The notes: generated by a model from the letters alone, not told the origin. 35,677 bases of DNA from Thermoplasmata archaeon (GCA_022615805.1 JAKEGO010000020.1:1-35677); one strand, 5' to 3'; positions 12,305-34,374 are shown, numbered from the stretch's first letter. Numbers and translations are program-made.

Positions 12305-12316
12305 GTCATCGCCTCC

Positions 12317-13246: not shown

Positions 13247-13677
13247 CACGCCTCACCTCCGGTGAACTTCGTCTGCGGGCCCAGGGCCTTCACCTGCTCC
13301 GTGAACCTTGTCACGACCTCGGCGAACTTGTGGCCCTCGGACGCGGAGACCCACGACACCTGGAACCGCCCCGGGTCGATGCCCATGTAGTCCATCAGGT
13401 CGTGCAGCAGGGTCAGTTTCCTCCTGGCGTGGTAGTTCCCCTTGATATAGTGGCAGTCCCCGGGGTGGCAGCCGGAGACGAGCACGCCGTCGGCGCCCTC
13501 CTGGAAGGCCTTGAGTATGAACTGCGGGTTCACGCGCCCGGAGCACATCACCTTGATGACCCGGATGTTGTGCGGGTACTGGAGCCTCGACGTCCCGGCG
13601 AGGTCGGCGCCGGTGTAGCTGCACCAGTTGCAGAGGAAGCCTATGATCTTCGGTTCCCAGCTGTCGTTCTCGGCCAT
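13246..13677 (-). CDS. mvhD: MvhD/FlxD-type [2Fe-2S] electron-transfer subunit (F420-non-reducing hydrogenase delta-like)
   Basis: 143 aa with [77 protein letters not shown] lies upstream. Confidence 0.9.
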
Positions 13678-13745: not shown

Positions 13746-16700
13746 TCATACCACCTCGTGCAGCGCGCCCTTTATCATGGAGAGTATCTGGTTGTCGTTG
13801 AAGCCCCTCTGCTGGATGGCGCCCGACCGGCATGTCGCCGAGCAGAGGCCGCACCCCTTGCAAAGGGCGTTGTTGACGACCGCCTTACCGTCCTGGAGGT
13901 CGATGGCCACGTAGGGGCACGCGGCGACGCACAGCCCGCAGCCGACGCACGTCTCCTTGTCGACGCTCGCGGTGATGCCCTCCAGGACGAGTCGCCCCTT
14001 CATGATGGGTATGGCGGCCCTGGAGGCGGCGCCCTCGGCCTGGGCGATGGTGTCTGCGAGGTTCTTCGGGTAGTGCGCGGAGCCGCAGAAGTACACGCCG
14101 TCGGTGGCGAAGTCGAGCGGCCTTATCTTCGCGTGCGCCTCGATGAGGAAACGCCCGGGCCCGGAGGGTATCTTGAACATCTCCATGAGCCTATCCACCG
14201 AAACGGAGCCCTCTGTCTGGGCGGTGAGGACGACGAGGTCGGCGGGGATCTCGAGGTCGTCACCGTAGATCTCGTCGTGGACGCGCACCATCACATTCCC
14301 GTCGCCGTCCACCGAGACCTCAGGAGCCCTGTCGAGACCGTACCTGACGATCTTCACCCGCTTGTTCTCGATGACGTCGGTGAAGTACTCCTCCTCGTCC
14401 TTCCCGAACATGCGGATGTCGCGGTAGAGGATGTGGACGTCCGCGCCGGGATTCCTCTCCTTCAGGAGGCGGGCGTTCTTTATCGAGACGCCGCAGCCCA
14501 CGCGGCAGCACCATGGCCTCTCCGGCTCCATGGCGCCGGCGCAGTTGATCATCACCACGCTCCTCACCGGCGGCAGGTCCCCGGCCTTCAGGCGCTCCTC
14601 CAGCTCGGTCTGGGTCATCACCCTGTCGCTGGAGCCGTAGCCGTACCTGCCGGTGAGGTCGATCTCGTCGAACCCGGAGGCGATGACGGCCGTCCCGAAC
14701 GGGATGGTGCGCTCGCCCAGGGGCGTGCTGATCCGCGCCTCGAAGTTGCCGATGAAGCCGTCGACCTCATCGAGGGTGCTGCTGGTCAGCACCTCGATGT
14801 ACTCGTTGTTCCACACCCGGTCGGCCAGGGGGCCGATGACTTGGTCCGCCTCCAGATCGAGGGGGAAGAGAGTGTGCAACCGGCGTAGGATCCCGCCGAG
14901 CTCCGGTTCCTTCTCGACGACATACGACCGGACGTGCATTTCCGCCAGGGCGAGGGCCGTGCGCATGCCGGCCAGTCCGCCGCCGACGATCAGCACCGCG
15001 GGCGTGACCGAGACCTCCTCCTGCGTCAGAGGCTCGAGGAGGGCGGACTTGTGCACGGCCATGCGGACCAGGTCCCTGGCCTTGGCGGTCGCCGTGCTCC
15101 TGTTCCCCGAGTGCACCCATGAGCAGTGCTGCCGAATGTTCGCGAACTCGAAGAGGTACTTGTTGAGGCCTGCCTCGACCAAGGTGTCCTGGAAGAGGCC
15201 GCCGTGGGTGACGGGCGAGCACGCCGCTACGATGACGCGGTTGAGCCCCTCCTCCCGGACCTTGTCGCGGATGCTCTTTATCGTGTCCTCGGAGCAGGCG
15301 AACATCACGTCCGTCGCGAAGTCGACGTAGGGGAGGTCCCGCGCGTACGCTGCGACCGCCTCGGTGTCGAGGAAGCCGTGGATGTTCTTGCCGCAGTGGC
15401 ACACGAAGACGCCCACGCGCGGCGTCTCTCCGGTGACCTGACGCTCCACGGGCAGGGGAGCGGGCTCGGCCTTCTCCCTGTCGACTATGGCCGCCATCGC
15501 CTTCGCGGCGGCGCCGCTCGCCATCGCCACGCTGTCGGGGATGTCCTTGGGGCCCTGGTCGCAGCCGGCGAGGAAAACGCCCGGCCGGGAGGACTGGATG
15601 GGGTCCTCCATTATCGAGCCGGTCTCGAAGAACCCGCTCTCGTCGACGCCGATGCCGAGGACGCCTGCGAGGCGCGCGTTCTCCTTCGACGGGATTATAG
15701 CTGTGCTGAGGACGAGGAGGTCGACCGTCCTGTCCTTCACCTCTCGGGTGTGCGTGTCCATGTACCGTATCGAGATGCTCCCGTCGTCGTTCTCGAACAC
15801 CGAGCTCGGGCGCGCGCGGATGTACTCGACGCCGGCGTCCTTCGCCTTGTCGTAGTACTGCTGGAAGTCCTTGCCGTAGGCCCGGAGGTCCATGTAGAAG
15901 ATGCTGACGTCGATATCGGGGTCCGCCTCCTTGGCTATCGCCGCCTCCTTGGTGGCGTACATGCAGCAGACCCTGGAGCAGTAAGGGAACCCGAGCTGCT
16001 TGCTCCTGGAACCGACGCACTGGATCCACGCCACGCTCTTTGGCCGCTGGCCGTCGGACGGGCGCTTCACCTTACCCTCGGTCGGGCCGAAGGACGACAG
16101 GAGGCGCTCGAATTGCATAGCGGTGATGACGTTCGGGTACTTCCCGTAGCCGTACTCCTTCCGCATCTCGAGGGGCTCGAACAGCTCGTAGCCGGTGGCG
16201 ACGATGACGCTGCCGACGTGGACCTCGATGTCCTCGGACTTCTCGAGGAACGAGATCGCGCCCGGCTCGCACACGCGCTCGCACGAGCCGCAGCCGACGC
16301 AGTTCTCGTAGTCGATGGTGTAGACGATCGGCACGGCCTGCGGGAACTCGATGTAGATCGCCTTCCGCCTCGAAAGGCCCTCCTCGAAGCCGCTCACGAC
16401 CTCGACGGGGCAGACGGGGACGCAGTCGTCGCACCCGGTGCATTTCTCCGGATCGACGTACTTGCTCTTCCGGAACACGTGCGCGGTGAAGTTGCCGGTC
16501 TCCCCCTCGAGGGACTGTATCTCGGTGTACGTCATCAGCCTGATGTTCGGGTGCCTGGATACCTCCACCATCTTCGGGGCGGAGGTGCATATCGAGCAGT
16601 CGTTCGTCGGGAAGGTCTTGTCGAGCTTGACCATGTTCCCGCCGATGGTCGAGGTCTTGTCGAGCAGGACGACCCTGTAGCCCTTGTCGGCGATGTCGAG

Positions 16701-16970
16701 CGCGGCCTGCATGCCGGAGATGCCGCCGCCGACTATGAGGACGTCGGCGTCGATGCGCCTTCCCGCCCTGCGAAGCTTGTACTCTGCGACGACTTCGGGC
16801 TCCGCCTCCCCGTGCATCGCGTCTTCGAGCATCGTCAGCTCGGGGACCTGTATCAGGTAATCGTCTTCCAGGGGCACATCGTCGTAGTACTGCGGTATGA
16901 CGTCGGTCCCTTCCATCACGTCCACGGGGGTCTCGCACTCCCCGGCCTTCGTCTCACCGGGAAAGGGCAT
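13746..16970 (-). CDS. hdrA: Giant two-module HdrA-like flavoprotein (heterodisulfide reductase subunit A family), paralog 1
   Basis: 1074 aa. Module 1 has VLIVGGGISGMQAALD, DKTFPTNDCSIC, an inserted ferredoxin (CTGCDDCVPVCP / CVGCGSCERVCEP) and CVGSRS..YCSRVCC. Module 2 has VGVFVCHCGKNI (N-domain cluster), VLIVGGGLAGMRTALALAE, NCAGAMEPERPWCCRVGC and a C-terminal ferredoxin (CVGCGLCVAACP / CKGCGLCSATCRSGAIQQRGF). Confidence 0.9.
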   Translation of the reverse strand: MPFPGETKAGECETPVDVMEGTDVIPQYYDDVPLEDDYLIQVPELTMLEDAMHGEAEPEVVAEYKLRRAGRRIDADVLIVGGGISGMQAALDIADKGYRVVLLDKTSTIGGNMVKLDKTFPTNDCSICTSAPKMVEVSRHPNIRLMTYTEIQSLEGETGNFTAHVFRKSKYVDPEKCTGCDDCVPVCPVEVVSGFEEGLSRRKAIYIEFPQAVPIVYTIDYENCVGCGSCERVCEPGAISFLEKSEDIEVHVGSVIVATGYELFEPLEMRKEYGYGKYPNVITAMQFERLLSSFGPTEGKVKRPSDGQRPKSVAWIQCVGSRSKQLGFPYCSRVCCMYATKEAAIAKEADPDIDVSIFYMDLRAYGKDFQQYYDKAKDAGVEYIRARPSSVFENDDGSISIRYMDTHTREVKDRTVDLLVLSTAIIPSKENARLAGVLGIGVDESGFFETGSIMEDPIQSSRPGVFLAGCDQGPKDIPDSVAMASGAAAKAMAAIVDREKAEPAPLPVERQVTGETPRVGVFVCHCGKNIHGFLDTEAVAAYARDLPYVDFATDVMFACSEDTIKSIRDKVREEGLNRVIVAACSPVTHGGLFQDTLVEAGLNKYLFEFANIRQHCSWVHSGNRSTATAKARDLVRMAVHKSALLEPLTQEEVSVTPAVLIVGGGLAGMRTALALAEMHVRSYVVEKEPELGGILRRLHTLFPLDLEADQVIGPLADRVWNNEYIEVLTSSTLDEVDGFIGNFEARISTPLGERTIPFGTAVIASGFDEIDLTGRYGYGSSDRVMTQTELEERLKAGDLPPVRSVVMINCAGAMEPERPWCCRVGCGVSIKNARLLKERNPGADVHILYRDIRMFGKDEEEYFTDVIENKRVKIVRYGLDRAPEVSVDGDGNVMVRVHDEIYGDDLEIPADLVVLTAQTEGSVSVDRLMEMFKIPSGPGRFLIEAHAKIRPLDFATDGVYFCGSAHYPKNLADTIAQAEGAASRAAIPIMKGRLVLEGITASVDKETCVGCGLCVAACPYVAIDLQDGKAVVNNALCKGCGLCSATCRSGAIQQRGFNDNQILSMIKGALHEVV

Positions 16971-17493
16971 CCTTACCAGCCTCGTATCCCTTCTTGAACG
17001 CGTTCACGTTGAGCTCGGCGAACCTCTTGGGGACGCTGTCGAGCACCGCCTTCCTCATGGCATCCTCGTCGAACAGGTCGTATATGCCGGTCATCGCCCC
17101 CACCATGGCGATGTTGGTCACTATCTTGTTCCCGAGGTCCTCTGCGATCTTCTGGACCCGCACCTCGAAGACCGGACGCCCTAGGTCGTGTTTCGGCACC
17201 AGGTCCGGATCGACGATGACGACCGTGTCGGGCCTCACGTCCCCCTTGTAGGTGTCGAACGCCTCCTGGGCGATCGCCACGAACAGGTCGACGCCGGTCG
17301 GGCGGGGGTAGCCGATCGGTTCGTCCGAGATTATGACCTCCGAGCGGGCGGCGCCGCCCCTGGCCTCCGGGCCGTACGATTGGCTCTGCACGGCGTTGTA
17401 CGGGCCGAACACGCATGCCGCCTTCCCGACGATGAACCCCGCGAGGATGACCCCCTGGCCACCGAACCCGGCGATCCTGATCTCGCGCTTCAT
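16954..17493 (-). CDS. 2-oxoacid:ferredoxin oxidoreductase gamma subunit (kor/por type)
   Basis: It begins MKREIRIAGFGGQGVILAG. The ATG at 17493 overlaps the beta-subunit stop (ATGA). The 3' end overlaps the hdrA start by 17 nt. Confidence 0.9.
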   Translation of the reverse strand: MKREIRIAGFGGQGVILAGFIVGKAACVFGPYNAVQSQSYGPEARGGAARSEVIISDEPIGYPRPTGVDLFVAIAQEAFDTYKGDVRPDTVVIVDPDLVPKHDLGRPVFEVRVQKIAEDLGNKIVTNIAMVGAMTGIYDLFDEDAMRKAVLDSVPKRFAELNVNAFKKGYEAGKDALSR

Positions 17494-18377
17494 TCCGCAC
17501 CACCCCCGCCCCACTTCGCGTCATCGTTGGCCATGAGCTTCTTCACCATCCGGTCGTATGCCTCGAAGAAGCCGGGCTTCTCGGCCTTCTGGAAGATACC
17601 GATGAGGAACTTCTCCTTCACCGCCGCCTTCTCCTCCTCGGTCCCGTACCTCATCGTCTTCTCGTAGTCCTCGATGAGGATGGTGTTCTGCTCGTACCAG
17701 GCCCAAAGCTGGTCGATCTCCCCCAGCTTGTTGCGACGCCCGTAGGCGGTCGGGCAGGGGGACATGAGCTCTATGAGCGCGAACCCTGGGGTCTGTATCC
17801 CCTCCTTGATCGACTTGATGGGCTGGTAGGGGTAGAATATCGGCCACCGTGCGACGTATGCGGCGCCCAGGGCCGTCGCGAGCTCGCTGATGTTGAACGG
17901 CTGCTCGATGTTCCCGTAAGGGGCGGTGGTCGCGATGCTCCCCTTCGGCGCCGTCGGCGCGAGCTGCCCGCCCGTCATCCCGTAGATGAAGTTGTTGAGC
18001 AGGATGACGGTCATGTCTATGTTGCGCCGCGCGGCGTGGATGAAGTGGTTGCCGCCGATGCCCGTGCAGTCGCCGTCCCCCGTGAAGACGATCACGTGCA
18101 TGTCGGGGTTCGCGGCCTTGATCCCGGTGGCGAAGGCCAGCGCCCTCCCGTGCGTCGTGTGGAGGCCGTCGGCGTTGATGTAACCCGGGATCCTCGACGA
18201 GCACCCGATGCCGGAGGCGAGCGCCACGTCGTCCATGTTTATCCCGAGCTCCTCTATGGCCCAGAAGGTGTAGTCGATGGCGTTCCCGTGGCCGCAGCCG
18301 TTGCAGAATATCGTCGGGAGCATCCCGTCCCGAAGGTATTTCCTCCGGATCTCGTTGGCGTCGATCATCTCGCTCAT
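17490..18377 (-). CDS. 2-oxoacid:ferredoxin oxidoreductase beta subunit (TPP-binding)
   Basis: It begins MSEMIDANEIRRKYLRDG. It has CNGCGHG and the TPP motif VIVFTGDGDCTGIGGNHFIHAARRNIDMTVILLNNFIYGMTGGQ. An ATGA overlap joins it to the alpha-subunit stop. Confidence 0.9.
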   Translation of the reverse strand: MSEMIDANEIRRKYLRDGMLPTIFCNGCGHGNAIDYTFWAIEELGINMDDVALASGIGCSSRIPGYINADGLHTTHGRALAFATGIKAANPDMHVIVFTGDGDCTGIGGNHFIHAARRNIDMTVILLNNFIYGMTGGQLAPTAPKGSIATTAPYGNIEQPFNISELATALGAAYVARWPIFYPYQPIKSIKEGIQTPGFALIELMSPCPTAYGRRNKLGEIDQLWAWYEQNTILIEDYEKTMRYGTEEEKAAVKEKFLIGIFQKAEKPGFFEAYDRMVKKLMANDDAKWGGGGAE

Positions 18378-19558
18378 GTCCTCACCCCCAGGTACTCCGC
18401 CAGCTCGTGCGGCAGGTGCATCTCGCCCCCGATCTTTGGGGCCATTACGACCTCGCAGGCCTGGTCGGTGTACTCCCGGATCGGATGGTAGATCTGCCCC
18501 AGGTTCATCTCGGGGACGATTATCCGCTCCACCTTCTTGGACACTGCCATTATCTCGTCGCGCGGGAACGGCCACACCGTTTTAAGGCGGAGCATGCCTG
18601 CCTTTATCCCCGCCTTGCGCGCATCCATGACGGCGCTCCTCGCGGGCCTCGCGGACGCGCCGTACGTGACGAAGGCGACCTCGGCGTCGTCCATCATCAC
18701 CTCCTCGATGTTGACGAACCGCTTCCTGTCGTCGGTTATCTTCTCGATTATCCTCATGACGAGCCTCTCGTGGTCAGGCTGCTTGTCGGTCCTCGGGAAG
18801 CCCTTCTCGTTGTGCGTCAGGCCCGTGACGTAGGTGTGATACCCCGTGCCGAAGGCGGCGAAGTCCGGGACCTTGCTGCCGTCGATCTGCGAGGGGGCGA
18901 ACGGGAGGAACTCGCCAGGCGGCAACTTCGGCGTCCGTCGCTCGACGAGCTCGATCTCGTCCTCGTCGGGTATCACCAGCTTCTCGCGGAGGTGGCCGAT
19001 CTCGCCGTCGGTCATCACGCAGACCGGGTGGCGGTACCTCTCCGAGAGGTTGATCGCCTCGATGGTCATGTCGAGGCACTCCTGGACCGTGCTCGGGGCC
19101 AGAGCGATGGCCTCCATGTCGCCATGGGAGCCCCAGCGGACCTGCATCATGTCCCCCTGTGCGCCGAGCGTCGGCTGACCGGTTGACGGGCCCGTCCTCT
19201 GAACGTTGGCGATGACGCACGGCGTCTCCGTCATGATCGCGTATCCGTAGTTCTCCATCATCAGCGAGAACCCGGGCCCCGAGGTGGCGGTCATGGCCTT
19301 GACGCCGCCCCACGCCGCGCCGATCACGGCGGCGATGCTGCCGATCTCGTCCTCCATCTGGATGAATGTGCCGCCGACGCGGGGGAGCAGCCGGGCCATC
19401 CCCTCCGCTACCTCCGACGCTGGCGTTATCGGGTATCCCCCGAAGAAGGAAACGCCGGCCACGAGCCCGCCGTAGGCCACGGCCATGTCGCCCTGGATGA
19501 ACTGCACCTTGTCTCCCAGAACCTTCCTGATGCGCACGGGGTCGCGTTGGTATTTCAT
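18374..19558 (-). CDS. 2-oxoacid:ferredoxin oxidoreductase alpha subunit
   Basis: It begins MKYQRDPVRIRKVLGDKVQFIQGD. It has FFGGYPITPASEV, MTATSGPGFSLMMEN and VQRTGPSTGQPT. An ATGA overlap joins it to the delta-subunit stop. Confidence 0.9.
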   Translation of the reverse strand: MKYQRDPVRIRKVLGDKVQFIQGDMAVAYGGLVAGVSFFGGYPITPASEVAEGMARLLPRVGGTFIQMEDEIGSIAAVIGAAWGGVKAMTATSGPGFSLMMENYGYAIMTETPCVIANVQRTGPSTGQPTLGAQGDMMQVRWGSHGDMEAIALAPSTVQECLDMTIEAINLSERYRHPVCVMTDGEIGHLREKLVIPDEDEIELVERRTPKLPPGEFLPFAPSQIDGSKVPDFAAFGTGYHTYVTGLTHNEKGFPRTDKQPDHERLVMRIIEKITDDRKRFVNIEEVMMDDAEVAFVTYGASARPARSAVMDARKAGIKAGMLRLKTVWPFPRDEIMAVSKKVERIIVPEMNLGQIYHPIREYTDQACEVVMAPKIGGEMHLPHELAEYLGVRT

Positions 19559-19812
19559 CGCGCCACACCTCCTAGGATGAGCTTCTGCTTCTGGACCCGC
19601 TCCTCGCCCGCCTCCTGGGTCACCGTGATGGCGAAGTCGGGACATATCAGCTCGCAGAGGCGGCAGAAGTTGCACTCGTTCTCCTCCTTGAGCCTTGGCG
19701 GGTAGACCCCTTTCTTGTTAAGGTCCTTCGACTTCTCGAGCGAGCTGGTCGGGCAGCGATTGATACAGAGCTCGCAGCCCTTGCACCAGTCCTCGATGAT
19801 CGTTATGGTCAT
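19555..19812 (-). CDS. 2-oxoacid:ferredoxin oxidoreductase delta subunit (2x[4Fe-4S] ferredoxin)
   Basis: 85 aa beginning MTITIIEDWCKGCELCINRCP, with a second motif CNFCRLCELICP. GAGGTG lies upstream. Only the last 85 codons of track ORF 19555..20916 are real. Confidence 0.85.
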   Translation of the reverse strand: MTITIIEDWCKGCELCINRCPTSSLEKSKDLNKKGVYPPRLKEENECNFCRLCELICPDFAITVTQEAGEERVQKQKLILGGVAR

Positions 19813-19823
19813 CCTTCGCCACC

Positions 19824-21470
19824 TCACAGTATGTCCAGGGCCCTCGCGAGGGCTTGATGGCCCCGGTACTCGGGTAGTATCATCGGGGCCGTCCCCTTCG
19901 GGGCGATCCCGGCCTCGTCGAGCATCCTGTTGTACTCGTCTATGTGCTTCAGGCTGAGCCTGCCGACCTTGCGCGTCCTCACGTACTCGGCGGTCCGGAT
20001 GCCCGCCCGTCTGCCGAAGACGTTGAAGTCGAGCAGCGAGTTCCCCATGAGCCTGTTCTTCCCGTGGACCCCGCCCGTCACCTCCCCCGCGCCGAAGAGC
20101 CCGGGTATCCGGGTCTCGGTCCGATCGTTCGTCTCCACGCCGCCGTTCTGGTAGTGGAGGGTTGGGTAGACCAGTATCGGGTGCTTCGTCATGTCGATGC
20201 CGAAGCGCTTGAACTTCCTGACCTCGCCTGCAAGCTTCCTCTCGATCGTCCCCTTTCCGTGTATCACGTCGATCATGGGCGAGTCCAGCCATACGCCGGG
20301 CATGCCCGTCGGGGTGACCAGGCCGCGGTCCTCCTCGCACTCGCGGATGAAGGACGCGGATTCGACGTCCCTTGGCTCGAGCGGGAACACGAAGGGGTCG
20401 CCGAACCTGTTGAGCGGCTTGGCCCCGAGGCCCCTCACCTTCTCGGTCGTGAGGATGCCGACCACGGCCTCCGGGTAGGCGTCCCCGGTCGGGTGGATCT
20501 GGATCGTGTCGAGGTCGAGCAGGTTCGCGCCGACGTGGTACGCCATGACGAGGCCGTCGCCGGTTGCGCCGTAGTGGTTGGTCGTCGGGTAGTTGCTCAG
20601 GTGGAGTCGCCCCGAGCCGCCCGTCGCGAGGATGGTCGCCTTCGCCCTGATGACATGGTGCTCCTTGGTCTCCAGGTTGAACGCGACCCCGCCCGCCACC
20701 GCCCCCTTGTCGTCGAGGAGCAGCTCCACGACCGGGCAGAATTCGAGGACCGGGATCTCCAGGTTGCGCGCGTGGTCCCTTATGTTCCTCATCATCTCCA
20801 TGCCCGTGTAGTCCTTCGCACTGTGCATCCTGTTCCTCGACGTGCCGCCGCCCGAGAGCTCCTGGAACTCGCCGTCGTCCATGCGGTCGTACATGACACC
20901 GAGGTCGAGGTGCCACCTCAGTATCTTCGGGGCGTCCATTGCGAGGGCACGGGCCATCTCCGGCTTGTTGGTGAAGTGGCCGCCGCCGTAGATGTCCAGG
21001 TAGTGGATCAGCGGACTGTCCACGCCCCTGTCGGCGGCCTGGATGCCCCCCTGGGCCATCATCGAGTTGGCGTCGCCGTGGCGGAGCTTCGTCGCGATGA
21101 GTATCCTGTCCACCGGGACGCCCGATTCGTGGGCGAAGATCGCGGCGACCGTCCCGGCGCCGCCGCCGCCGATGATGAGGATGTCGACATCGTGGTCGAT
21201 GTGACCGAGGTCGACGGCCCGAGGGTCGAGGACGGGGCGCGCCTCGAGGAGGTCGACGATGCCATTGTACATGAGAAGGCCCGCATCCGTGCCGACGCGC
21301 ACCTCGCGGCGGGTGCCCTCCATGTAGTCGGGGTGGAACCTCCTCAACATGTCCTCGCGCTGCTCCATGGACATGGGTTCGATGGCCCGCTCGATGTTCT
21401 CGGCCCGCTTCTCCTCCACGAGCCGGATCGAATCCATCATGTATTCAGGGTAACCGCTCTCGAGCTTCAT
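19824..21470 (-). CDS. SdhA/FrdA/NadB-family FAD flavoprotein (fumarate-reductase-like) with a ~110-aa N-terminal extension
   Basis: 548 aa with DILIIGGGGAGTVAA, SMMAQGGIQAA, IQIHPTG, TTEKVRGLGA, TLHYQNGGVETN and GLFGAGEVTGGVHGKNRLMGNSLLDFNVFGRRAG. Confidence 0.85.
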   Translation of the reverse strand: MKLESGYPEYMMDSIRLVEEKRAENIERAIEPMSMEQREDMLRRFHPDYMEGTRREVRVGTDAGLLMYNGIVDLLEARPVLDPRAVDLGHIDHDVDILIIGGGGAGTVAAIFAHESGVPVDRILIATKLRHGDANSMMAQGGIQAADRGVDSPLIHYLDIYGGGHFTNKPEMARALAMDAPKILRWHLDLGVMYDRMDDGEFQELSGGGTSRNRMHSAKDYTGMEMMRNIRDHARNLEIPVLEFCPVVELLLDDKGAVAGGVAFNLETKEHHVIRAKATILATGGSGRLHLSNYPTTNHYGATGDGLVMAYHVGANLLDLDTIQIHPTGDAYPEAVVGILTTEKVRGLGAKPLNRFGDPFVFPLEPRDVESASFIRECEEDRGLVTPTGMPGVWLDSPMIDVIHGKGTIERKLAGEVRKFKRFGIDMTKHPILVYPTLHYQNGGVETNDRTETRIPGLFGAGEVTGGVHGKNRLMGNSLLDFNVFGRRAGIRTAEYVRTRKVGRLSLKHIDEYNRMLDEAGIAPKGTAPMILPEYRGHQALARALDIL

Positions 21471-22229: not shown

Positions 22230-22247
22230 CCTACCACCTCTCGCCGA

Positions 22248-23126: not shown

Positions 23127-23130
23127 GGTA

Positions 23131-23562
23131 TCATCCGACGTTCTTCCTGAAGAGGCAGACGAAAGCCAGCTGCGGTATGCTGCGCTTCTCCTCCTCGGTG
23201 AGCCCGGTCATGTCCGTCTCGTCGATGTTGCTCCGGAGGACGATCTGCCGCAGGGCCTCCATGATCTTCGTGATGTTGAGGTCGCGGGGGCACCTCTCCG
23301 CGCACGTGAAGCAGGATGCGCACAACCATATCGTCTTCGAGCGGAGCACTTCCTTCCGGTCCATGATCACGTGTCGGAGGACCTCGTCGGGGGTCAGGTC
23401 CATCTCGTCGATGAAGGGGCACCCGGCGGCGCACGTGCCGCACTGGTAGCAACCGAACACGTTCTCGTCGCAGAGGTCCTGCAGCTCATCGATGAGAGTG
23501 CCCGATAACCTCGGGACCTTCTCCTGTGCGGCCTCCTCGCTCCTCCTGGATTCGGTCGCCAT
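23131..23562 (-). CDS. hdrC: HdrC-like 2x[4Fe-4S] subunit
   Basis: It starts at the ATG at 23562 (MATESRRSEE...), preceded by GGAGGG. It has CYQCGTCAAGCP and CASCFTCAERCP. Confidence 0.85.
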   Translation of the reverse strand: MATESRRSEEAAQEKVPRLSGTLIDELQDLCDENVFGCYQCGTCAAGCPFIDEMDLTPDEVLRHVIMDRKEVLRSKTIWLCASCFTCAERCPRDLNITKIMEALRQIVLRSNIDETDMTGLTEEEKRSIPQLAFVCLFRKNVG

Positions 23563-23863
23563 GATAGCCCTCCGTAATCGAATGGTGCAACAGCCCCTTC
23601 GCTGCCGTAGCAACCTGGATACCGTTTTTCCGTTATAAGGATTTGACGGTCGCGAACTGGTCCGATTTTGACATTTAATTGATATTTTTCAAAAAAAGGT
23701 ATCACATTGGCCAGTACCTGAGACCCGTTTTACCATTTTGCGAGTTATTACGGGTCGAATTCTCCCTCTCGGACGGAGACCCCCCCGCCAGTCGGCGGCT
23801 GAAGCGCCGCCCGCGGGACACGTAGCGGTGCATTGATGCGCCCGGGTACGGCGTACGCCGCGT
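23563..23863 (-). promoter_or_regulatory. Inter-operon region holding a probable oligo-T terminator for the upstream unit and TATA-like promoter elements for the hdrC-...-flxA unit
   Basis: This is the only gap over 100 nt between 35677 and 10184. The minus strand reads ...ACCTTTTTTTGAAAAATATCAATTAAATGTCAAAATCGG...GTCAAATCCTTATAACGGAAAAACGG... It has a T7 run (plus strand 23691-23697), AT-rich boxes (plus strand ~23672-23690 and 23629-23638) and two TTTGAC copies (plus strand 23642-23647 and 23667-23672). A GGCGGC/GCCGCC hairpin lies at 23794-23811. Confidence 0.4.
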
Positions 23864-26800
23864 TCATAGCACCTCGCATATCGCCCCCTTGATGAGGGAG
23901 AGGATCTGCTGGTCCTTGAAGCCCTTCTGCTGTATGGCCCCGGAGCGGCAGGTGGCGGCGCAGAGGCCGCACCCCTTGCAAAGGGCCTCGGTGACGGCTG
24001 CATGGCCGTCCTTGAGCTCGATGGCGTTGTAGGGGCACGCGGCGACGCACAGACCGCAGCCGACGCACATCGCATCGTCGACCGCCGAGACCGTGGCCTC
24101 GGCCTCGAAGTGGTCCTTCGAGATGATGGTGCAAGCCCTGCTTGCCGCGGCGTAGGCCTGGGCGATGGTCTCGCCTATGAACTTGGGGGAGTGGGCCATG
24201 CCGGCGAGGAAGACCCCCTCCGTGCTGAAGTCCACGGGCCTGAGCTTGACGTGCGCCTCGAGGAAGAACCCGTCCGAGTTGAGCGGGACCTTGAGGAGCT
24301 TGCCCAGTGCCTCGTTTCCGTCGGGGGGTGCGATCGCGGGGGACAATACCACCCTGTCCGCCGATATGTCGATGTCCTCGCCGAGTATCGGGTCCCGGAC
24401 TCGCACCTCGAGGCCGCCGCCGGTCCGGGCGACGACGGGCTTGCGGTCAAGGTCGTACCGGACGAAGATGACGCCCTTCTCCCGGGCCCGTTCGTACAGG
24501 GTCTCGTTGAAGCCGTACGTGCGCATGTCGCGGTAGAGGACGAACACGCGGGCGTCGGGGTAGCGTTCCACCACCCGCAGCGCGTTCTTCACCGCGTTCG
24601 TGCAGCATATCCTGCTGCAATATGGCCGGTGGTCCTCCCTCGAACCCACGCACTGTATCAGCGCCAGCGTCGAACCGGAGAGGTCGGCCCCCTCCGCCAG
24701 CATCCGCTCCAGGTCCGTCTGAGTGACGACGTCGGGGTCCTGGCCGCACAAGTACTCCGTCGGGACGGACTCGACCGCTCCTGTCGCGACCACGACGACG
24801 CCGTGCTCGATGACCGTCCCGGAACCGCCATGGTCGAGGGTGGTACGGTAGTTGCCGACGTACCCCTCGATGGTCGAGATGGCCGCGCCCGTATGGACCC
24901 GGACCCGCCCGTCCGCCTCGACCCGCGCCGTCAGCCCCCGGAGGAAGGCCTGGACGTCTGCCCCGTCCGCCGTCGTGTGGATGTGGTTCAGGTTGCCGCC
25001 GAGCCGGGAGTCGCGCTCGACGATGTCCACGTCGTAGCCCTGCTCCGCGATGGCGAGGGCCGCCGTCATCCCTGCGAGGCCTCCGCCGACGACCAGCGCT
25101 GACTGCGTCACGCCGAGCCTCACCTTGGACAACGGCTCGATGATCTGCGCCTTCGAGACCGCCATGCGGACGAGGTCGCGGGCCTTGGCTGTGGCGCTCG
25201 CCCTCTCGCCCATGTGGACCCACGAGCACTGGTCGCGGATGTTGGCCATCTCGAACAGGTGGGCGTTGAGCCCCGCCTCCCGCAGGGTCGACTGGAACAG
25301 CGGCTCGTGCGTGCGGGGCGTGCACGACGCCACGATCACGCGGTTGAGGTGGTGCTCCTGGATCGTCTCCACGAACCGCTTCTGCGTGTCCTGCGAGCAC
25401 GTGTAGAGGTTGTCCTCCGCGTGGACGACGTTCGGCAGGCCGCGGGCGTAGGCGACGAGCCCGGGCACGTCGATGTAACCGCCGATGTTGATCCCGCAGT
25501 GGCAGATGAAGACGCCGATCCGCGGAGCATCCCCCCGGACGTCCGCCTCGGCGGGGAGGGCCTTGCCGCCCACGAGGGTGTCCCTCGCGCTCGCTATCAG
25601 CCCGCTGGCCCTCGCGGCCGCCCCCGATGCCTCCATGACCGTCTCCGGGATGTCCTTCGGCCCCGCGAAAGAGCCGCAGACGAAGACCCCCTCGCGGGAC
25701 GTGCTGACGGGGTCGAGGCCGTCGACGGCGCAGAACCCCCTCTCCGTGAGTTCGACGCCGACGCGTTCGGCGAGCCGGCGGGCGCCCTCGCTCGCCGTGA
25801 AGCCCACAGAGAGCACGACGAGGTCGAACCTCTCCTCTTCGATGTGGCCATCCTCGGTCTCGTACCTTATCAGGAGGTCGTTGGTTTCCGGGTCCTCTTC
25901 GACCCTGGAGACGCGGCACCGCAGGAACCTGACCCCGTACTCGTCCCGCGCCCTGTCGTAATAGGCCTCGAAGCCCTTCCCGAAGGTGCGCATGTCCATG
26001 AAGAATATCGTCGGCTCGATGGTAGGGACGTGCTCCTTTGCGATCACCGCCTCCTTGATCGCATACGTGCAGCAGACGGACGAGCAGTAGTCCCTCCCGC
26101 AGCCGAGGTCCCTCGAGCCCACGCACTGCAACCACGCTATGCGCCGGGGCTGGACGCCGTCCGACGGCCTCAGGACGTGGCTCCTGAAGGGGCCGCTGGC
26201 GGAGAGGATGCGCTCGAACTCGATGCTCGATACGACGTTCGGGAAGCGCCCGTGGCCGTACTCGGGCTTGAGCGCCGGGTCGAACTCCTCGAAGCCCGGG
26301 CAGAGGATCACGCTGCCGACCCGCAGCTCCACAATCTCGTCCTTGTCGTCGTACCGGATCGCATTCGCGAGGCACAGGTTCTCGCACAGGCCGCAGCCGA
26401 TGCACCTCTCCCGGTCGATGGCGAAGGCGAGCGGGACCGCTTGCGGGTAGAGGAGGTAGATCGCACGCCTCTCGTTCATCCCCTCGTTGAAGGAGTTGAT
26501 GGCGTCGATGGGGCACTCCCTCGCGCAGACGCCGCAGCCGGTGCAGGCCTCGGGGTCCACGTAGCGGGCCTTTCGCCTGATCCTCACGCGGAAGTCGCCC
26601 GGCGTGCCCTCGAACCCCTCCACCTCGGAGTAGGTGACGAGCTCGATGTTCGGGTGGCGGCCGACATCGACGAGCTTCGGTGCCATTATGCACATGGAGC
26701 AGTCGTTGGTCGGGAAGGTCTTGTCCAGCTGGGCCATCGTGCCGCCGATGCCGGGCGCCGTGTCGACGAGGTAGACCTTGAACCCGGAGTTCGCTAGGTC

Positions 26801-26875
26801 GAGGGCCGCCTGCATGCCGGCGATGCCGCCGCCCACCACGAGGACCGCACCCACGGCATCGGGCGTCACCGACAC
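23864..26875 (-). CDS. hdrA: Giant two-module HdrA-like flavoprotein, paralog 2
   Basis: 1003 aa with VLVVGGGIAGMQAALD, DKTFPTNDCSMC, CTGCGVCARECP / CIGCGLCENLC, CVGSRDLGCGRDYCSSVCC, IGVFICHCGINI, ALVVGGGLAGMTAALAIAE, CVGSREDHRPYCSRICC and CVGCGLCVAACP / CKGCGLCAATCRSGAIQQKGF. The start is a GTG at 26875 (or the GTG at 26869), overlapping the upstream stop. Confidence 0.9.
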   Translation of the reverse strand: MSVTPDAVGAVLVVGGGIAGMQAALDLANSGFKVYLVDTAPGIGGTMAQLDKTFPTNDCSMCIMAPKLVDVGRHPNIELVTYSEVEGFEGTPGDFRVRIRRKARYVDPEACTGCGVCARECPIDAINSFNEGMNERRAIYLLYPQAVPLAFAIDRERCIGCGLCENLCLANAIRYDDKDEIVELRVGSVILCPGFEEFDPALKPEYGHGRFPNVVSSIEFERILSASGPFRSHVLRPSDGVQPRRIAWLQCVGSRDLGCGRDYCSSVCCTYAIKEAVIAKEHVPTIEPTIFFMDMRTFGKGFEAYYDRARDEYGVRFLRCRVSRVEEDPETNDLLIRYETEDGHIEEERFDLVVLSVGFTASEGARRLAERVGVELTERGFCAVDGLDPVSTSREGVFVCGSFAGPKDIPETVMEASGAAARASGLIASARDTLVGGKALPAEADVRGDAPRIGVFICHCGINIGGYIDVPGLVAYARGLPNVVHAEDNLYTCSQDTQKRFVETIQEHHLNRVIVASCTPRTHEPLFQSTLREAGLNAHLFEMANIRDQCSWVHMGERASATAKARDLVRMAVSKAQIIEPLSKVRLGVTQSALVVGGGLAGMTAALAIAEQGYDVDIVERDSRLGGNLNHIHTTADGADVQAFLRGLTARVEADGRVRVHTGAAISTIEGYVGNYRTTLDHGGSGTVIEHGVVVVATGAVESVPTEYLCGQDPDVVTQTDLERMLAEGADLSGSTLALIQCVGSREDHRPYCSRICCTNAVKNALRVVERYPDARVFVLYRDMRTYGFNETLYERAREKGVIFVRYDLDRKPVVARTGGGLEVRVRDPILGEDIDISADRVVLSPAIAPPDGNEALGKLLKVPLNSDGFFLEAHVKLRPVDFSTEGVFLAGMAHSPKFIGETIAQAYAAASRACTIISKDHFEAEATVSAVDDAMCVGCGLCVAACPYNAIELKDGHAAVTEALCKGCGLCAATCRSGAIQQKGFKDQQILSLIKGAICEVL

Positions 26876-27639
26876 TCACCCCCGGTCCCCGCGAGAACGT
26901 AGAGCGGGGAGTCGCCGTCCATCCCGCCCGAGTGGACGATCCCCCGGTCCTCCAGGTCGACGATGATGCGGAGGACGTCGCGCGGCGGCATGTCGAGGGC
27001 GCCCGCTATGGTCCCGACGGTCATGGGGCCCTTGCCGAGCTCGGCGCGGACCCGCTGCCGGAAGTGCTCGACCGAGATGTTGCGCCAAAGAACCTCGCGG
27101 AAGGCGTCGGCGTCGAGGACCTCCCCGTACGCGTTGCCGGCCTCCACGAGCTCGCGCTCCTTGCCGACCAGCCAACGGAGCCGGTCGCTCGCAGCGATCC
27201 CCTCTCCCACGGCGGCCCTCTCCGAGGCCCCCGGGACGCCGGACAGGGGCCCGAGGGCGCGCACCCGCCCGACGAAGCACGTGATGACCTCGCCGAAACG
27301 CTGGCCTTCCGCGGCCGAGACCCAGTCCAGGAGGAGGCGCTCGGGCTCGATGCCGACCTCCTCCAGGATCCTGCTCGCCATCGCCATCTTCCTTTCGGCC
27401 TGGTAGTTCCCGGTGAGGTAGTGGCAGTCGCCGGGGTGGCACCCGAGGACCGCAACGCCGTCTGCGCCGCCTCTGAAGGCCTCCAGCACAAGTACCGGGT
27501 CCACGCGGCCGGAGCACATGACGCGGATGACGCGGACGTTGGGAGGGTACTGCACCCGGGAGACGCCGGCGAGGTCGGCGCCGGCGTAGGCGCACCAGTT
27601 GCAGAGGAAACCCAGTATGCGTGGCTCCCAGGAGGTCAT
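26866..27639 (-). CDS. mvhD: MvhD-like [2Fe-2S] subunit fused to a ~120-aa C-terminal extension with a winged-helix-like segment
   Basis: It starts at the ATG at 27639 (MTSWEPRILGFLCNWCAYAGADLAGVSRVQYPPNVRVIRVMCSGRVDP...[10 protein letters not shown]), with an ATGA overlap to the hdrA stop. The extension ends ...GPMTVGTIAGALDMPPRDVLRIIVDLEDRGIVHSGGMDGDSPLYVLAG. Confidence 0.85.
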   Translation of the reverse strand: MTSWEPRILGFLCNWCAYAGADLAGVSRVQYPPNVRVIRVMCSGRVDPVLVLEAFRGGADGVAVLGCHPGDCHYLTGNYQAERKMAMASRILEEVGIEPERLLLDWVSAAEGQRFGEVITCFVGRVRALGPLSGVPGASERAAVGEGIAASDRLRWLVGKERELVEAGNAYGEVLDADAFREVLWRNISVEHFRQRVRAELGKGPMTVGTIAGALDMPPRDVLRIIVDLEDRGIVHSGGMDGDSPLYVLAGTGGECR

Positions 27640-30600
27640 GGCCGCACCCCCCCGAAGGCGTCGATCTGCGCCCCGATCTCGTCGTCCGTGAAGTGCCGCA
27701 TGGTGATCGCGAGCTTCGGGCACGAGGCGCCGCAGACGCCGCACCCCTTGCACGATGCCGATATGACCGTGGCCTTCCGGCCCCCCTCCATCAGCGATAT
27801 GTCGATCGCCTTGAAAGGGCACAGGGAGGCGCAGAGGCCGCATCCGATGCAGAGGTCGCGGTCGACGACCGCGACGGCGGGGTCCACGGTCACCCGCCCC
27901 TTGGACAGGAGCGTGGCGGCCCTCCCGGCCGCGGCGCAGGCCTGCGCGATCGACTCGTCAATCGTCTTCGGCGAATGGGCCATTCCGGCGAGGAAGACGC
28001 CGTCGGTGGCGAAGTCCACCGGCCGGAGCTTGACGTGGGCCTCCAGGAAGAAGCCGTCGGCGTTCCGCGGGACCTTGAGCATCTTCGCAAGGGCCATGCT
28101 GTCCTCCCTCGGCTCGATGGCGGGGCTCAGCGCGAGGAGGTCGGCGTCTATGACGATGTCCTCGCCGAGGATGGGCTCGCGGGCCGTTATCCTGAGGCGG
28201 CCTGCCTCGGAGGTCACGACCGGTGGTCCCTCCGGGTCGAACCTGATGAAGATGGCGCCGAGCTCCCGCGCCCTCTCGTAGGCGACCTCCCGCGTGCCGT
28301 AGGTGCGGATGTCGCGGTAGAGGACGAACACCCGGGCGTCGGGGAAGGTCTCGAGGATGCGGACTGCGTTCTTCACGGCGTCGATGCAGCACACGCGGCT
28401 GCAGTACGGGCGGGCCGTGTCGCGCGAGCCGACGCACTGTATCATCGCGACGGTCCTGCCGGACAGGTCCTCGCCATCGGCCACCATCCGCTCGAGCTGG
28501 CGCTGGGTGACGACGCGCTCGTCCATGCCGTACATGTACGCGTCCGGGACGGACTCGACGGCGCCGGTGGCGACGATGACGGCGCCGTGCTCGACGGCCG
28601 TCGTCGAGCCGGCAGCCTCGAGGACCGTCCTGAAGTTCCCGACATAGCCTTCGATGGACGCGATCGCGGACGAGAGACGGAGGTCGATGAGCGGGTGGCC
28701 CCGGACCCGCGAGACGAGCTCCGCCAGGTAGGACGGGACGTCGTCGTTCTCGAGCGTGTAGCGGGTGTGGAGGAGGTTGCCGCCGAGGCGGTCCTCCCGC
28801 TCGACCAGGGTCGCGGGGAATCCCTGTCCCGCGAGGGCGAGTGCGGCCGTCATGCCGGCGAGCCCGCCGCCGATCACCAGGGCGCGGGGGTTGACGTCGA
28901 GCGTCACCTCCTCGAGGGGCTCGATGAGGAGTGCCTTCGCCACGGCCATGCGCACCTGGTCGCTCGCCTTCGCGGTGGCCTCCTCGGGCGCGTTCATGTG
29001 GACCCACGAGCACTGGTCGCGTATGTTCGCCATCTCGAACAGGTGCGGGTTCAGCCCGGCCTCGCGGAGGGTCTCCTTGAAGAGGGGCTCGTGCGTCCGG
29101 GGCGTGCACGAGGCGACGATGACGCGGTTCAGGCCGTGCTCGCGGATCCGCTCCACGAGCGAGCGCTGGGCGTCCGCCGAGCACGTGTAGAGGCTGTCCT
29201 CGGCGAGGACGACTCCGGGCAGGCCCCTCGCGTACTCGACCACCGCCGGGACGTCGACGTAGGCGCCGATGTTGATGCCGCAGTGGCAGACGAAGACGCC
29301 CACCCTCGGCACCTGGCCACGGACGTCGATCTCGGCGGGGTGCTCGGCCCGGGTCACCAGGGCGCCGCGCGAGCCGGCGATGAGGGCGCCCGCCCTGGCG
29401 GCGGCGCCCGATGCCTCGATGACCGTCTCCGGGATGTCCTTTGGCCCCGCGAAGGCCCCGCAGACGAAGACGCCGGGGACGCTCGTCTCCATGGGCGACG
29501 TCTCGCCGGTCACGCAGAAGCCGAAGCGGTCCGTCTCGACGCCGACGAGGGACGCGAGGTCCCGGGCCGTCCGTCCGGGCTCGAGCCCGACCGAGAGGAC
29601 GACCATGTCGAACCTCTCCTCACGGAGGCTGCCGTCCTCCGCCTCGTACCTGACCACGAGGTCGTGGCTCCCGGGGGCCTCCCTGACGTCCGCGACGCGG
29701 GAACGGATGAAGCGGACGCCGTGCCTGTCCCTGGCGGCCGTGAAGTACTCCTCGAAGCCCTTGCCGAAGGTGCGCATGTCCATGTAGAACATCGTCGGCT
29801 CGATGCGCGGGTCGTGCTCCCTCGCGATGACGGCCTCCTTTATGCCGTAGGTGCAGCAGACGGACGAGCAGTACTCGTTGCCGCACCCCCGGTCCCGCGA
29901 GCCGACGCAGTTGATCCATGCGATGCGCCGCGGCTCGGCGCCGTCGGACGGGCGGCGCACGTGCCCCTCGTACGGCCCGCTGGCCGAGAGGATGCGCTCG
30001 AACTCGAGGCTCGTGACGACGTTCGGGAAGTTCTCGTATCCGTACTCCCCCTTCAGGCGAGGATCGAACCCCTCGAAACCGGGCGCGAGGACGATGGCCC
30101 CGACCTCGAGGACGCGCTCCCTGTCCTCCATGTCGAGGTCGACCGCGCCCGCAGGACAGACGGAGACGCACTTCTGCACGCACTTCCCCTTCGTGACCTG
30201 GAGGCAGCGCTCGGGGTCGACGACGTATCGCATCGGCACGGCCTGCGGGTACGGGATGTATATCGCCCCGCGCCTCGAGAGCCCCTCGTCGTAGTCGTCT
30301 GGGAACCTTCCCGCGAGGACGCACGCCTCGGCGCAGAGGCCGCAGCCCACGCAGGCTTCGGTGACGCGGCGGGCGCGCTCGCGCACCTTGACCCGGAACG
30401 CTCCGGCCTCGCCCTCCACAGCGACCACGTCGGCGTTGGTCGCGAGGTCGACGTTCGGGTGCCTCCCGATGTCGACGAGCTTCGGGGAGAGTATGCACAG
30501 CGAGCAATCGTTCGTGGGGAAGGTCTTGTCGAGCTGCGCCATGACGCCGCCGATGGCCGGCGAGCCCTCGACGAGGTGCACGCGGAAGCCCGCCTCCGCG

Positions 30601-30827
30601 AGGTCGAGCGCGGCCTGTATTCCTCCGACGCCCCCGCCCACGACGAGCGCGGCGCCGACCGGGGCGCGCGCTCCCGTCGCCCCGGGAACGCTTCCGCCGG
30701 ACGCACCGGGTTCGGATGCGCCGCCTCCAGCTGCCCTCGCTGCCTCGGGCACGCCCGGACCGGATACGGGGGTGGCGCCATCGTGACCGCAGGCGCACCC
30801 CTCCGTCCCCGCCGGCCTCGGGCTCAT
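27636..30827 (-). CDS. hdrA: Giant two-module HdrA-like flavoprotein, paralog 3, with a low-complexity CxC-containing N-terminal extension
   Basis: 1063 aa with ALVVGGGVGGIQAALD, DKTFPTNDCSLC, CVGCGLCAEAC, CVGSRDRGCGNEYCSSVCC, VGVFVCHCGINI, ALVIGGGLAGMTAALALAG, CVGSRDTARPYCSRVCC and CIGCGLCASLCP / CKGCGVCGASCP. The ATG at 30827 overlaps the hdrB stop (ATGA). Confidence 0.9.
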   Translation of the reverse strand: MSPRPAGTEGCACGHDGATPVSGPGVPEAARAAGGGASEPGASGGSVPGATGARAPVGAALVVGGGVGGIQAALDLAEAGFRVHLVEGSPAIGGVMAQLDKTFPTNDCSLCILSPKLVDIGRHPNVDLATNADVVAVEGEAGAFRVKVRERARRVTEACVGCGLCAEACVLAGRFPDDYDEGLSRRGAIYIPYPQAVPMRYVVDPERCLQVTKGKCVQKCVSVCPAGAVDLDMEDRERVLEVGAIVLAPGFEGFDPRLKGEYGYENFPNVVTSLEFERILSASGPYEGHVRRPSDGAEPRRIAWINCVGSRDRGCGNEYCSSVCCTYGIKEAVIAREHDPRIEPTMFYMDMRTFGKGFEEYFTAARDRHGVRFIRSRVADVREAPGSHDLVVRYEAEDGSLREERFDMVVLSVGLEPGRTARDLASLVGVETDRFGFCVTGETSPMETSVPGVFVCGAFAGPKDIPETVIEASGAAARAGALIAGSRGALVTRAEHPAEIDVRGQVPRVGVFVCHCGINIGAYVDVPAVVEYARGLPGVVLAEDSLYTCSADAQRSLVERIREHGLNRVIVASCTPRTHEPLFKETLREAGLNPHLFEMANIRDQCSWVHMNAPEEATAKASDQVRMAVAKALLIEPLEEVTLDVNPRALVIGGGLAGMTAALALAGQGFPATLVEREDRLGGNLLHTRYTLENDDVPSYLAELVSRVRGHPLIDLRLSSAIASIEGYVGNFRTVLEAAGSTTAVEHGAVIVATGAVESVPDAYMYGMDERVVTQRQLERMVADGEDLSGRTVAMIQCVGSRDTARPYCSRVCCIDAVKNAVRILETFPDARVFVLYRDIRTYGTREVAYERARELGAIFIRFDPEGPPVVTSEAGRLRITAREPILGEDIVIDADLLALSPAIEPREDSMALAKMLKVPRNADGFFLEAHVKLRPVDFATDGVFLAGMAHSPKTIDESIAQACAAAGRAATLLSKGRVTVDPAVAVVDRDLCIGCGLCASLCPFKAIDISLMEGGRKATVISASCKGCGVCGASCPKLAITMRHFTDDEIGAQIDAFGGVRP

Positions 30828-34373: not shown

Positions 34374-34374
34374 G

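Follow-up and report, generated by a model that had tools for sequence, protein, structure and literature searches.

This analysis concerns a 35,677-nucleotide (nt) stretch of DNA from a Thermoplasmata archaeon (GCA_022615805.1, JAKEGO010000020.1:1-35677), referred to below as the window, and within it three paralogous genes, hdrA1, hdrA2 and hdrA3, encoding large HdrA-family flavoproteins (paralogs 1–3). The guanine plus cytosine (GC) content of the window is 62–71%, and nearly all of the real genes of the region are on the minus strand. The coordinates, strand and lengths of the three open reading frames (ORFs) in the original prediction, which was made from the DNA alone, agree with the ORF list and translations (Table 1). 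Each protein consists of two modules, both of which include a flavin adenine dinucleotide (FAD) domain of the TrxR type.

All the motifs named in that prediction are recovered by regular-expression checks, one copy per expected module. Two GxGxxG motifs are present in each protein (residues 81 and 663 in paralog 1, 15 and 597 in paralog 2, 64 and 653 in paralog 3), together with a single DKTFPTNDCSxC motif, confined to module 1 (residues 117, 51 and 100, respectively), and a single CHCGxNI motif, confined to module 2 (residues 524, 458 and 514). The CVGS...YCSxVCC motif is found in both modules of paralogs 2 and 3; its module 2 counterpart in paralog 1 is, as had been noticed, degenerate (CAGA...WCCRVGC), yet it has four cysteines (810, 821, 822 and 826) with altered spacing. 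CxxCxxCxxxC motifs occur twice within module 1 and twice at the C terminus, the second inserted-ferredoxin motif of paralog 3 being non-canonical (C208-x7-C216-x3-C220-x3-C224) and previously missed. Pfam models identify two FAD/Rossmann regions (Pyr_redox_2/FAD) in each protein, and four 4Fe-4S ferredoxin stretches in paralogs 1 and 2, with one in paralog 3 by the plain Fer4 model.

The N termini of two of the proteins merit comment. The first ~58 residues of paralog 3 are of low complexity; a CACGHDG string near this N terminus was considered as a CxCGxNI motif and is taken as a chance match, since it lies in the low-complexity extension and the rest of an N-domain is absent. A 983-residue database form of paralog 2 begins 20 codons past the GTG at 26875 (26815–26875), a start that would delete the first GxGxxG; the longer form, which shares ~10 nt with the end of the MvhD gene upstream, likely has the true start.

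The available evidence from regular expressions, phmmer and MAFFT is that the modules are composed as originally described. In module 1, a TrxR-like FAD domain bears the Cys pair, a di-cluster ferredoxin insertion and a [4Fe-4S] site of its own, and there is neither an N-domain nor a C-terminal ferredoxin; module 2 combines the N-domain cluster with a second FAD domain, lacking both the Cys pair and the ferredoxin insertion, and with a C-terminal di-cluster ferredoxin. The predicted cofactor complement is thus 2 FAD and 7 [4Fe-4S] clusters per chain. In a phmmer search against chains of the Protein Data Bank (PDB), paralog 2 matches HdrA of the Mvh-Hdr complex (5odc_A, E = 1e-222), a similarity far above what chance would be expected to give, in a permuted order: its residues 11–375 correspond to HdrA 146–511 (TrxR and inserted ferredoxin), 450–607 to HdrA 3–160 (N-domain), and 828–998 to HdrA 475–649 (the end of TrxR and the C-terminal ferredoxin).

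When the six half-proteins are aligned with 5odc_A in MAFFT, both halves of each protein align to the HdrA TrxR domain. Module 1 retains GxGxxG, Cys194, Cys197, the inserted ferredoxin, Glu356, the cluster cysteines 386/399/403/404, Lys409 and GPKDI (5odc_A numbering). Module 2 retains the N-domain cysteines, GxGxxG, Glu356, the cluster cysteines, Lys409, EAHxKxRPxD and the C-terminal ferredoxin, with GPKDI changed to (S/Y)PK(F/T/N)(I/L); its four-Cys cluster site is present in all three paralogs. An acidic residue ends β2 in both FAD domains, and in paralog 2 the flavin-signature residues are E221 and K274 in the first TrxR domain (TrxR1) and E723 and K763 in the second (TrxR2). In 50 homologues sharing at least 58% identity, the ligand cysteines, together with the Lys and Glu residues, are invariant or nearly so in both modules. 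Because both FAD domains have GxGxxG, the β2 acidic residue and equivalents of Glu356 and Lys409, the possible objection that module 2 is without an FAD pocket, raised in the original prediction as a refutation, fails at the sequence level.

An AlphaFold2 model of paralog 2, made with an alignment of homologues, has a mean predicted local distance difference test score (pLDDT) of 85.9 and a predicted template-modelling score (pTM) of 0.89, the latter implying that the modelled inter-domain arrangement is confident. Foldseek comparison with the PDB gives two classes of match, i.e. to HdrA core chains (8rwn_A, 8rvu_a; ~420 columns, 49% identity, TM-score by target (TMt) 0.93–0.94) and to whole HdrA chains (5odc_A, 8rvu_A, 7bkb_A; ~650 columns, 36% identity, TMt 0.77–0.78). 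Query ranges were not reported, and on the basis of identities and lengths the former class is provisionally assigned to module 1 and the latter to module 2, which, judged from its sequence, would be a complete protomer minus the inserted ferredoxin. No two-module HdrA chain was found in the PDB either by sequence (phmmer) or by fold (Foldseek), the entries for BamE, a fused HdrA described below (29QY, 29RC, 29RN), being outside the set searched.

It could be argued that module 2 is a mere ferredoxin- or NAD-binding accessory without flavin, such that there is no pseudo-dimer: its TrxR region is the more diverged, with the phmmer search against the PDB skipping residues ~607–828, and its GPKDI motif is altered. 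That module 2 keeps GxGxxG, the β2 Glu, the Glu356/Lys409 equivalents and EAHxKxRPxD, and that the whole-HdrA fold matches are attributed to it, albeit without query ranges, make this proposal scarcely credible, as do the experimental binding of FAD by TrxR2 of BamE and the presence of two FAD in the Moorella HdrA.

The proteins do not conform to the canonical single-module order (N-domain, TrxR with inserted ferredoxin, C-terminal ferredoxin, ~650 residues), the domains being permuted and duplicated. The NCBIfam HdrA2 and HdrA models each match every one of the three proteins in three separate stretches, and none of the three reaches the whole-protein cut-offs for canonical HdrA or HdrA2 (NF041778, HdrA, 733–769 against 1400; NF041891, HdrA, 662–753 against 1300; NF040770, HdrA2, 1013–1021 against 1100). 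By contrast, the sequence and gene-context features of the type II (fused), or BamE-like, class of HdrA are present: two TrxR FAD domains, a first half resembling class A6 and a second half resembling class A12, Glu356/Lys409 in the first FAD domain, and neighbouring genes for MvhD and HdrBC/HdrD-type proteins.

The paralogs share 47% (1 and 2), 43% (1 and 3) and 61% (2 and 3) identity, which rules out a recent tandem duplication as the source of the three copies. An internal duplication as the source of the two modules is likewise ruled out, in that each module is closer to canonical HdrA (42–49% identity) than to its sister module (26–33%); this result agrees with the published model of a fusion between classes A6 and A12 (Lyu 2025). 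The identities between paralogs run parallel for module 1 and module 2, so the fusion is older than the paralogs. The three are thus old duplicates tied to different partners within one conserved gene string.

Searching databases with paralog 2 (E ≤ 1e-20) gives more than 8000 relatives, of which the best 120 are described here. These are 57–77% identical to it and either ~1000 residues long or 1450–1720 residues with an added GltD-like domain; those that are named are HdrA-family proteins, FAD-dependent oxidoreductases or 4Fe-4S ferredoxins, from Thermoplasmatota, Bathyarchaeota, Euryarchaeota and Chloroflexi. In a species-level genome scan, at least 598 species genomes encode relatives whose domains are ordered as here, the relatives listed including those from Asgard archaea, Bathyarchaeia, Methanomassiliicoccales, Desulfotomaculum-type Firmicutes and Desulfobacterota. 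The closest genome among the matches listed, a Thermoplasmatota metagenome-assembled genome (MAG; L001 in our sample of loci), is at 77% identity and has the same gene string, including all three paralogs.

Gene neighbourhoods were compared for 80 related loci, each of up to ~23 kb, which together contain 105 two-module ORFs. The half with the Cys pair comes first in all 105. Two or more two-module HdrA genes are present in 23 of the 80 loci and three in 3, so that loci with more than one copy are common and the description of three copies within 17 kb as unusual holds only in part. Up to six copies of fused double-HdrA proteins per archaeal assembly were reported in a 2024 survey. In many Bathyarchaeia and Asgard loci (L005, L016, L021–L023, L028, L030 and others) a stand-alone HdrA of ~565 residues is encoded beside the fused one, ~2.5 kb upstream. 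It has the N-domain motif, does not have the Cys-pair motif, and is possibly an unfused A12-like protein, hinting that heterodimeric and fused forms exist side by side in these loci.

The minus-strand gene order in the window is GlcD-like FAD oxidase, HdrD/GlcF-like protein, LplA-like ligase, HdrC3, HdrB3, HdrA3, long MvhD, HdrA2, HdrC2, HdrB2, then a [2Fe-2S]/[4Fe-4S] protein, a TfrA-like flavoprotein, KorA, KorB, KorG, HdrA1, MvhD, the FlxC-, FlxB- and FlxA-like proteins, and LarA; there are accordingly two MvhD genes, two HdrC/HdrB pairs and one HdrD-like gene. Overlaps of a few bases at many junctions are compatible with co-translation. The gap between the hdrA2 stop and the hdrC2 start (23563–23863) is, at ~250–300 nt, an interruption of an otherwise tight string, and is ~95 nt in the L001 locus. 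Several ORFs in the 65–70% GC sequence are rejected as wrong-frame artefacts rich in Arg, Pro and Gly, i.e. 12306–13256, 16973–17524, 26876–27595 and the N-terminal 134 residues (31715–32116) of ORF 30824–32116; beneath them, in other frames of the same strand, are the real genes for the FlxC-like Fe-S protein, KorG, the long MvhD, and HdrC3 with HdrB3.

Table 1. Genes and modules of the window, in order of position (nt from the first letter of the window).
Feature	Position	Strand	Remarks
SucCD, succinyl-CoA synthetase	3378-5414	+	
LarA-type lactate racemase	8825-10081	-	
FlxCBA-like NAD(P)H-input module	10184-13249	-	three genes
FAD/NAD(P)/[2Fe-2S] protein (FlxA-like)	10184-11230	-	
ShyB/AsrA-like Fer4_22 protein (FlxB-like)	11231-12304	-	
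18-Cys Fe-S protein (FlxC-like)	12317-13249	-	
MvhD/FlpD	13246-13677	-	143 aa; E = 4e-58; directly downstream of hdrA1
HdrA paralog 1	13746-16970	-	1074 aa; probable type II (fused) HdrA; ORF and translation
HdrA paralog 1, module 2	~13746-15440	-	
HdrA paralog 1, module 1	~15441-16970	-	
KorA, KorB, KorG, 2-oxoacid:ferredoxin oxidoreductase	16954-19675	-	ferredoxin-linked; directly upstream of hdrA1
TfrA/SdhA-like fumarate-reductase flavoprotein	19824-21470	-	TfrA model 306 bits, under the cut-off of 718
[2Fe-2S] + 2x[4Fe-4S] protein	21471-22229	-	
HdrB2, HdrB/SdhE-like	22248-23126	-	two CCG domains
HdrC2, HdrC-like	23131-23562	-	downstream of hdrA2
HdrA paralog 2	23864-26875	-	1003 aa; GTG start at 26875; probable type II HdrA; ORF and translation
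HdrA paralog 2, module 2	~23864-25543	-	
HdrA paralog 2, module 1	~25544-26875	-	
Long MvhD/FlpD-like [2Fe-2S] adaptor	26866-27642	-	~258 aa; FlpD E = 8e-55; between hdrA3 and hdrA2, overlapping at both ends
HdrA paralog 3	27636-30827	-	1063 aa; probable type II HdrA; ORF and translation
HdrA paralog 3, module 2	~27636-29327	-	
HdrA paralog 3, module 1	~29328-30827	-	
HdrB3, HdrB-like	30824-31714	-	two CCG domains; stop overlaps hdrA3 start
HdrC3, HdrC-like di-cluster protein	31711-32205	-	translationally coupled to HdrB3
Lipoate-protein ligase (LplA/B catalytic domain)	32205-33254	-	directly upstream of hdrC3-hdrB3-hdrA3, downstream of GlcD-like/HdrD-like pair
GlcD-like FAD oxidase + HdrD/GlcF-like partner	33312-35661	-	

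The partners recur to different extents in the related loci: MvhD in all 80, HdrC in 61–64, HdrB in 55 and FlxABC-like genes in 27–28, with TfrA-like and Kor genes restricted to the closest relatives (the TfrA-like flavoprotein gene in 3 loci and that for its Fe-S partner in 2, L001 being among them). A homologue covering at least half of the length of the long MvhD is present in 78 of the loci; this protein has a C-terminal tail of ~125 residues that appears, by eye, to be winged-helix-like. The segment 19824–23562 resembles an HdrA-coupled fumarate-reductase-type module, and it is possible that the Fe-S protein and TfrA-like flavoprotein form a high-potential acceptor module for the HdrA2 complex. 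The flanking SucCD, LarA and GlcD-like genes point to a lactate and reductive tricarboxylic acid (TCA) cycle theme of the locus. The LplA-like gene keeps its arrangement in L001 (71%) and L065 (54%); its placement recalls the link between the sHdr systems of sulfur oxidisers and lipoate-binding proteins, and among the window ORFs scanned no lipoate-binding protein was identified.

This context also bears on the possibility that the three proteins are ordinary subunits of the CoM-S-S-CoB heterodisulfide reductase of a methanogen or methanotroph. Their top NCBIfam matches are to the HdrA2 and HdrA models and HdrB and HdrC homologues adjoin; however, as with HdrA and HdrA2, the HdrB and HdrC scores are under the respective cut-offs, in this case far under. 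Among the neighbours scanned, none was recognised as a methanogenesis gene; relatives are found in Bathyarchaeia, Asgard archaea, Firmicutes and Desulfobacterota, and the surrounding genes are for lactate, TCA-cycle and NAD(P)H enzymes. Such an assignment is therefore considered very unlikely.

The explanation we favour, with a probability of roughly 80%, is that all three gene products are HdrA of type II (fused), in which one chain reproduces an asymmetric HdrA dimer, as in BamE of Geobacter and HdrA of the acetogen MetFV-Hdr complex. The division of labour seen between the modules, with the Cys pair and inserted ferredoxin in module 1 and the N-domain cluster and C-terminal ferredoxin in module 2, supports the pseudo-heterodimer envisaged in the original prediction. 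The domain content, the conservation of cofactor ligands, the co-occurrence of partner genes and the confident fold are observed here; we infer the identity of the bifurcating FAD, the substrates and the way in which electrons flow.

In the canonical dimer, as seen in Mvh-Hdr-Fmd structures, a rotating mobile arm of one HdrA carries the MvhD cluster together with HA3, the shuttle cluster of the N-domain, and these serve FAD' of the other protomer. The high-potential electron exits via the TrxR cluster to HdrC and HdrB, and the low-potential electron passes from the shuttle cluster to the inserted ferredoxin of the partner. Transposing this wiring to the fused proteins, TrxR1 of module 1 would be the working bifurcation core, with its FAD flanked by the Glu356/Lys409 equivalents and the Cys194/Cys197 pair; its cluster would hand the high-potential electron to HdrC/HdrB-type partners, and the inserted di-cluster ferredoxin would be the low-potential exit to ferredoxin. 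Module 2 would stand in for the second protomer of (HdrABC)2, providing the N-terminal shuttle-cluster domain and a C-terminal ferredoxin, the latter as a possible docking site for the [2Fe-2S] adaptor MvhD; the mobile arm would be made up of these parts, and TrxR2 would be mainly a structural pseudo-partner. With respect to partners, paralog 3 may work with its own HdrC/HdrB and the long MvhD, paralog 2 with HdrC/HdrB and the TfrA-like fumarate-reductase pair, and paralog 1 with MvhD, the FlxABC-like NAD(P)H module and the adjacent 2-oxoacid:ferredoxin oxidoreductase.

The proposed wiring appears to match that reported for BamE of the class II benzoyl-CoA reductase (BCRII) of Geobacter metallireducens, as described in an electron cryomicroscopy (cryo-EM) preprint (10.64898/2026.04.10.717634). 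BamE is a fused HdrA dimer with 2 FAD and clusters E1–E7; both TrxR domains bind FAD, the bifurcating one being in TrxR1 (Lys280, Cys59-Cys62), and the other, with Gln768, being non-bifurcating, off the branching path and essentially structural. The inserted ferredoxin is in TrxR1, electrons are received by the C-terminal ferredoxin, TrxR2 has its own cluster, and the partners are an MvhD-like adaptor and an HdrBC/HdrD-like subunit. In paralog 2 the Cys pair has the same numbers, Cys59/Cys62, and Lys274 is close in number to Lys280 of BamE; this near-equal numbering suggests that the layouts may be the same.

Several points weigh against our explanation. Packing of the two modules in the manner of HdrA/HdrA' is presumed from homology to the canonical dimer and BamE, homology to BamE rests on the matching architecture and near-identical residue numbering, and the partner assignments come from gene order only. 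That the second FAD is purely structural is, moreover, not established for this subfamily: where BamE has Gln768 at N5 of the second FAD, all three proteins have Lys, and TrxR2 keeps the Glu and its own four-Cys site.

These residues raise the possibility that both FAD domains are catalytic, giving two bifurcation or electron-transfer sites per chain, with TrxR2 and its cluster feeding a second HdrBC/HdrD-like or other acceptor such that two reactions are coupled. The Lys409/Glu356 equivalents and the four-Cys site in module 2 of all three paralogs, invariant in 50 homologues, would be in accord with such a scheme, as would Lys at both Lys409 positions in 82 of the 105 two-module ORFs and the several CCG-domain acceptor proteins encoded at the locus; the possibility has been raised for type II HdrA by Lyu 2025 (PMC12054007). 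However, because module 2 has neither Cys pair nor inserted ferredoxin and there is only one N-domain/MvhD arm per chain, a second site would be without a low-potential exit or an entry arm. In BamE, the only fused HdrA with a solved structure, the branching path bypasses the second FAD, which is described as structural, and the Sporomusa ovata HdrA keeps Glu and Lys in one of its two domains only. Two active flavins are thus considered unlikely; the Lys/Glu pair and cluster in TrxR2 are only a mild departure from BamE, and one already noted for archaeal type II HdrA (Lyu 2025).

A further conjecture, regarded as rather improbable, is that the second FAD is redox-active in the Lys/Glu-retaining subfamily, being linked via its private [4Fe-4S] cluster to a second acceptor, and that the Thermoplasmatota gene string constitutes a new bifurcating system. 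If so, reduction of fumarate (or of some disulfide) and oxidation of NAD(P)H would be coupled to ferredoxin-dependent 2-oxoacid synthesis by the products of three fused HdrA genes, two HdrBC pairs, the TfrA-like fumarate reductase, KorABG and the Flx-like NAD(P)H module, with SucCD nearby. Both the redox-active second flavin and the new bifurcating system linked to fumarate and 2-oxoacids are possibilities that nothing yet supports.

Anaerobes depend chiefly on HdrA modules for flavin-based electron bifurcation, and knowledge of the fused wiring helps in predicting the energy metabolism of uncultured archaea. That insight exists already, with type II HdrA described and BamE solved by cryo-EM; the fused-dimer architecture, and its reading as a single-chain heterodimer, are published and widespread, and the window is another instance. 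What is added here is a conserved three-paralog operon in Thermoplasmatota, the TfrA-like, Kor and Flx-like partners of which could steer biochemical work on non-methanogenic Hdr complexes.

Chadwick 2022 (PMC9012536) described HdrA homologues of more than 1000 residues as fusions of two HdrA genes, with N-domain and Cys197 complementary, and a self-heterodimer was proposed in 2022 for HdrA3/4 of anaerobic methanotrophic archaea (ANME) and for the Moorella HdrA. In Lyu 2025 (PMC12054007), the type II HdrA are defined by the joining of class A6, which has neither N-domain nor C-terminal ferredoxin, to class A12, and Lys409 and Glu356 are reported for 75% of type II sequences. The type II HdrA (classes A3/A4) of methane- and alkane-metabolising archaea resemble the present proteins in their A6-like and A12-like halves, in the complementary Cys197 and N-domain, and in having Lys409/Glu356 mostly in both halves. 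They differ in being from mcr-containing archaea and clustering with FdhB and molybdopterin proteins, whereas here the nearest relative among those listed is that of the Thermoplasmatota MAG and the gene context is another; the text of Chadwick 2022 gives the opposite order of halves to that in our ORFs.

With respect to BamE, the partners differ, being BamBC and BamGHI there and HdrBC, Flx-like, TfrA-like and Kor proteins here, where no selenocysteine adaptor is evident; the long MvhD is reminiscent of the elongated BamF adaptor of BCRII. Two TrxR domains are also present in HdrA of S. ovata and Moorella (Kremp 2022; for acetogen HdrA see also Mock 2014), and two FAD have been measured for the Moorella subunit (acetogen HdrA literature: Kremp 2022, Mock 2014). 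These HdrA proteins of acetogen MetFV-HdrABC-MvhD complexes, which are methylene-THF reductases (S. ovata, 101 kDa; Moorella thermoacetica, 163 kDa) share with those described here the two TrxR-like FAD domains, the HdrBC and MvhD partners, and a C-terminal half with N-domain, TrxR and C-terminal ferredoxin and no inserted ferredoxin. By contrast, HdrA of S. ovata is predicted to have only 5 clusters and carries Glu/Lys in one domain alone, that of Moorella bears an additional NAD(P)H domain of the GltD type, as in the 1450–1720-residue relatives, and MetFV is not present here.

All the domains and ligand motifs have homologues in the canonical HdrA homodimer of Mvh/Fdh-HdrABC (5ODC, 7BKB, 8RVU). 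That protein, with 650 residues per chain, is a symmetric dimer containing two full bifurcation units, whereas the fused protein has one cluster set spread over two FAD domains. The Desulfovibrio HdrA is of canonical length. The arrangement of hdrA1 followed by mvhD (FlxD-like) and FlxC-, FlxB- and FlxA-like genes is similar to the FlxABCD-HdrABC NADH dehydrogenase/heterodisulfide reductase of Desulfovibrio (Ramos 2015, cited in Kremp 2022), the differences being in the order of the genes and in the fused nature of the HdrA here.

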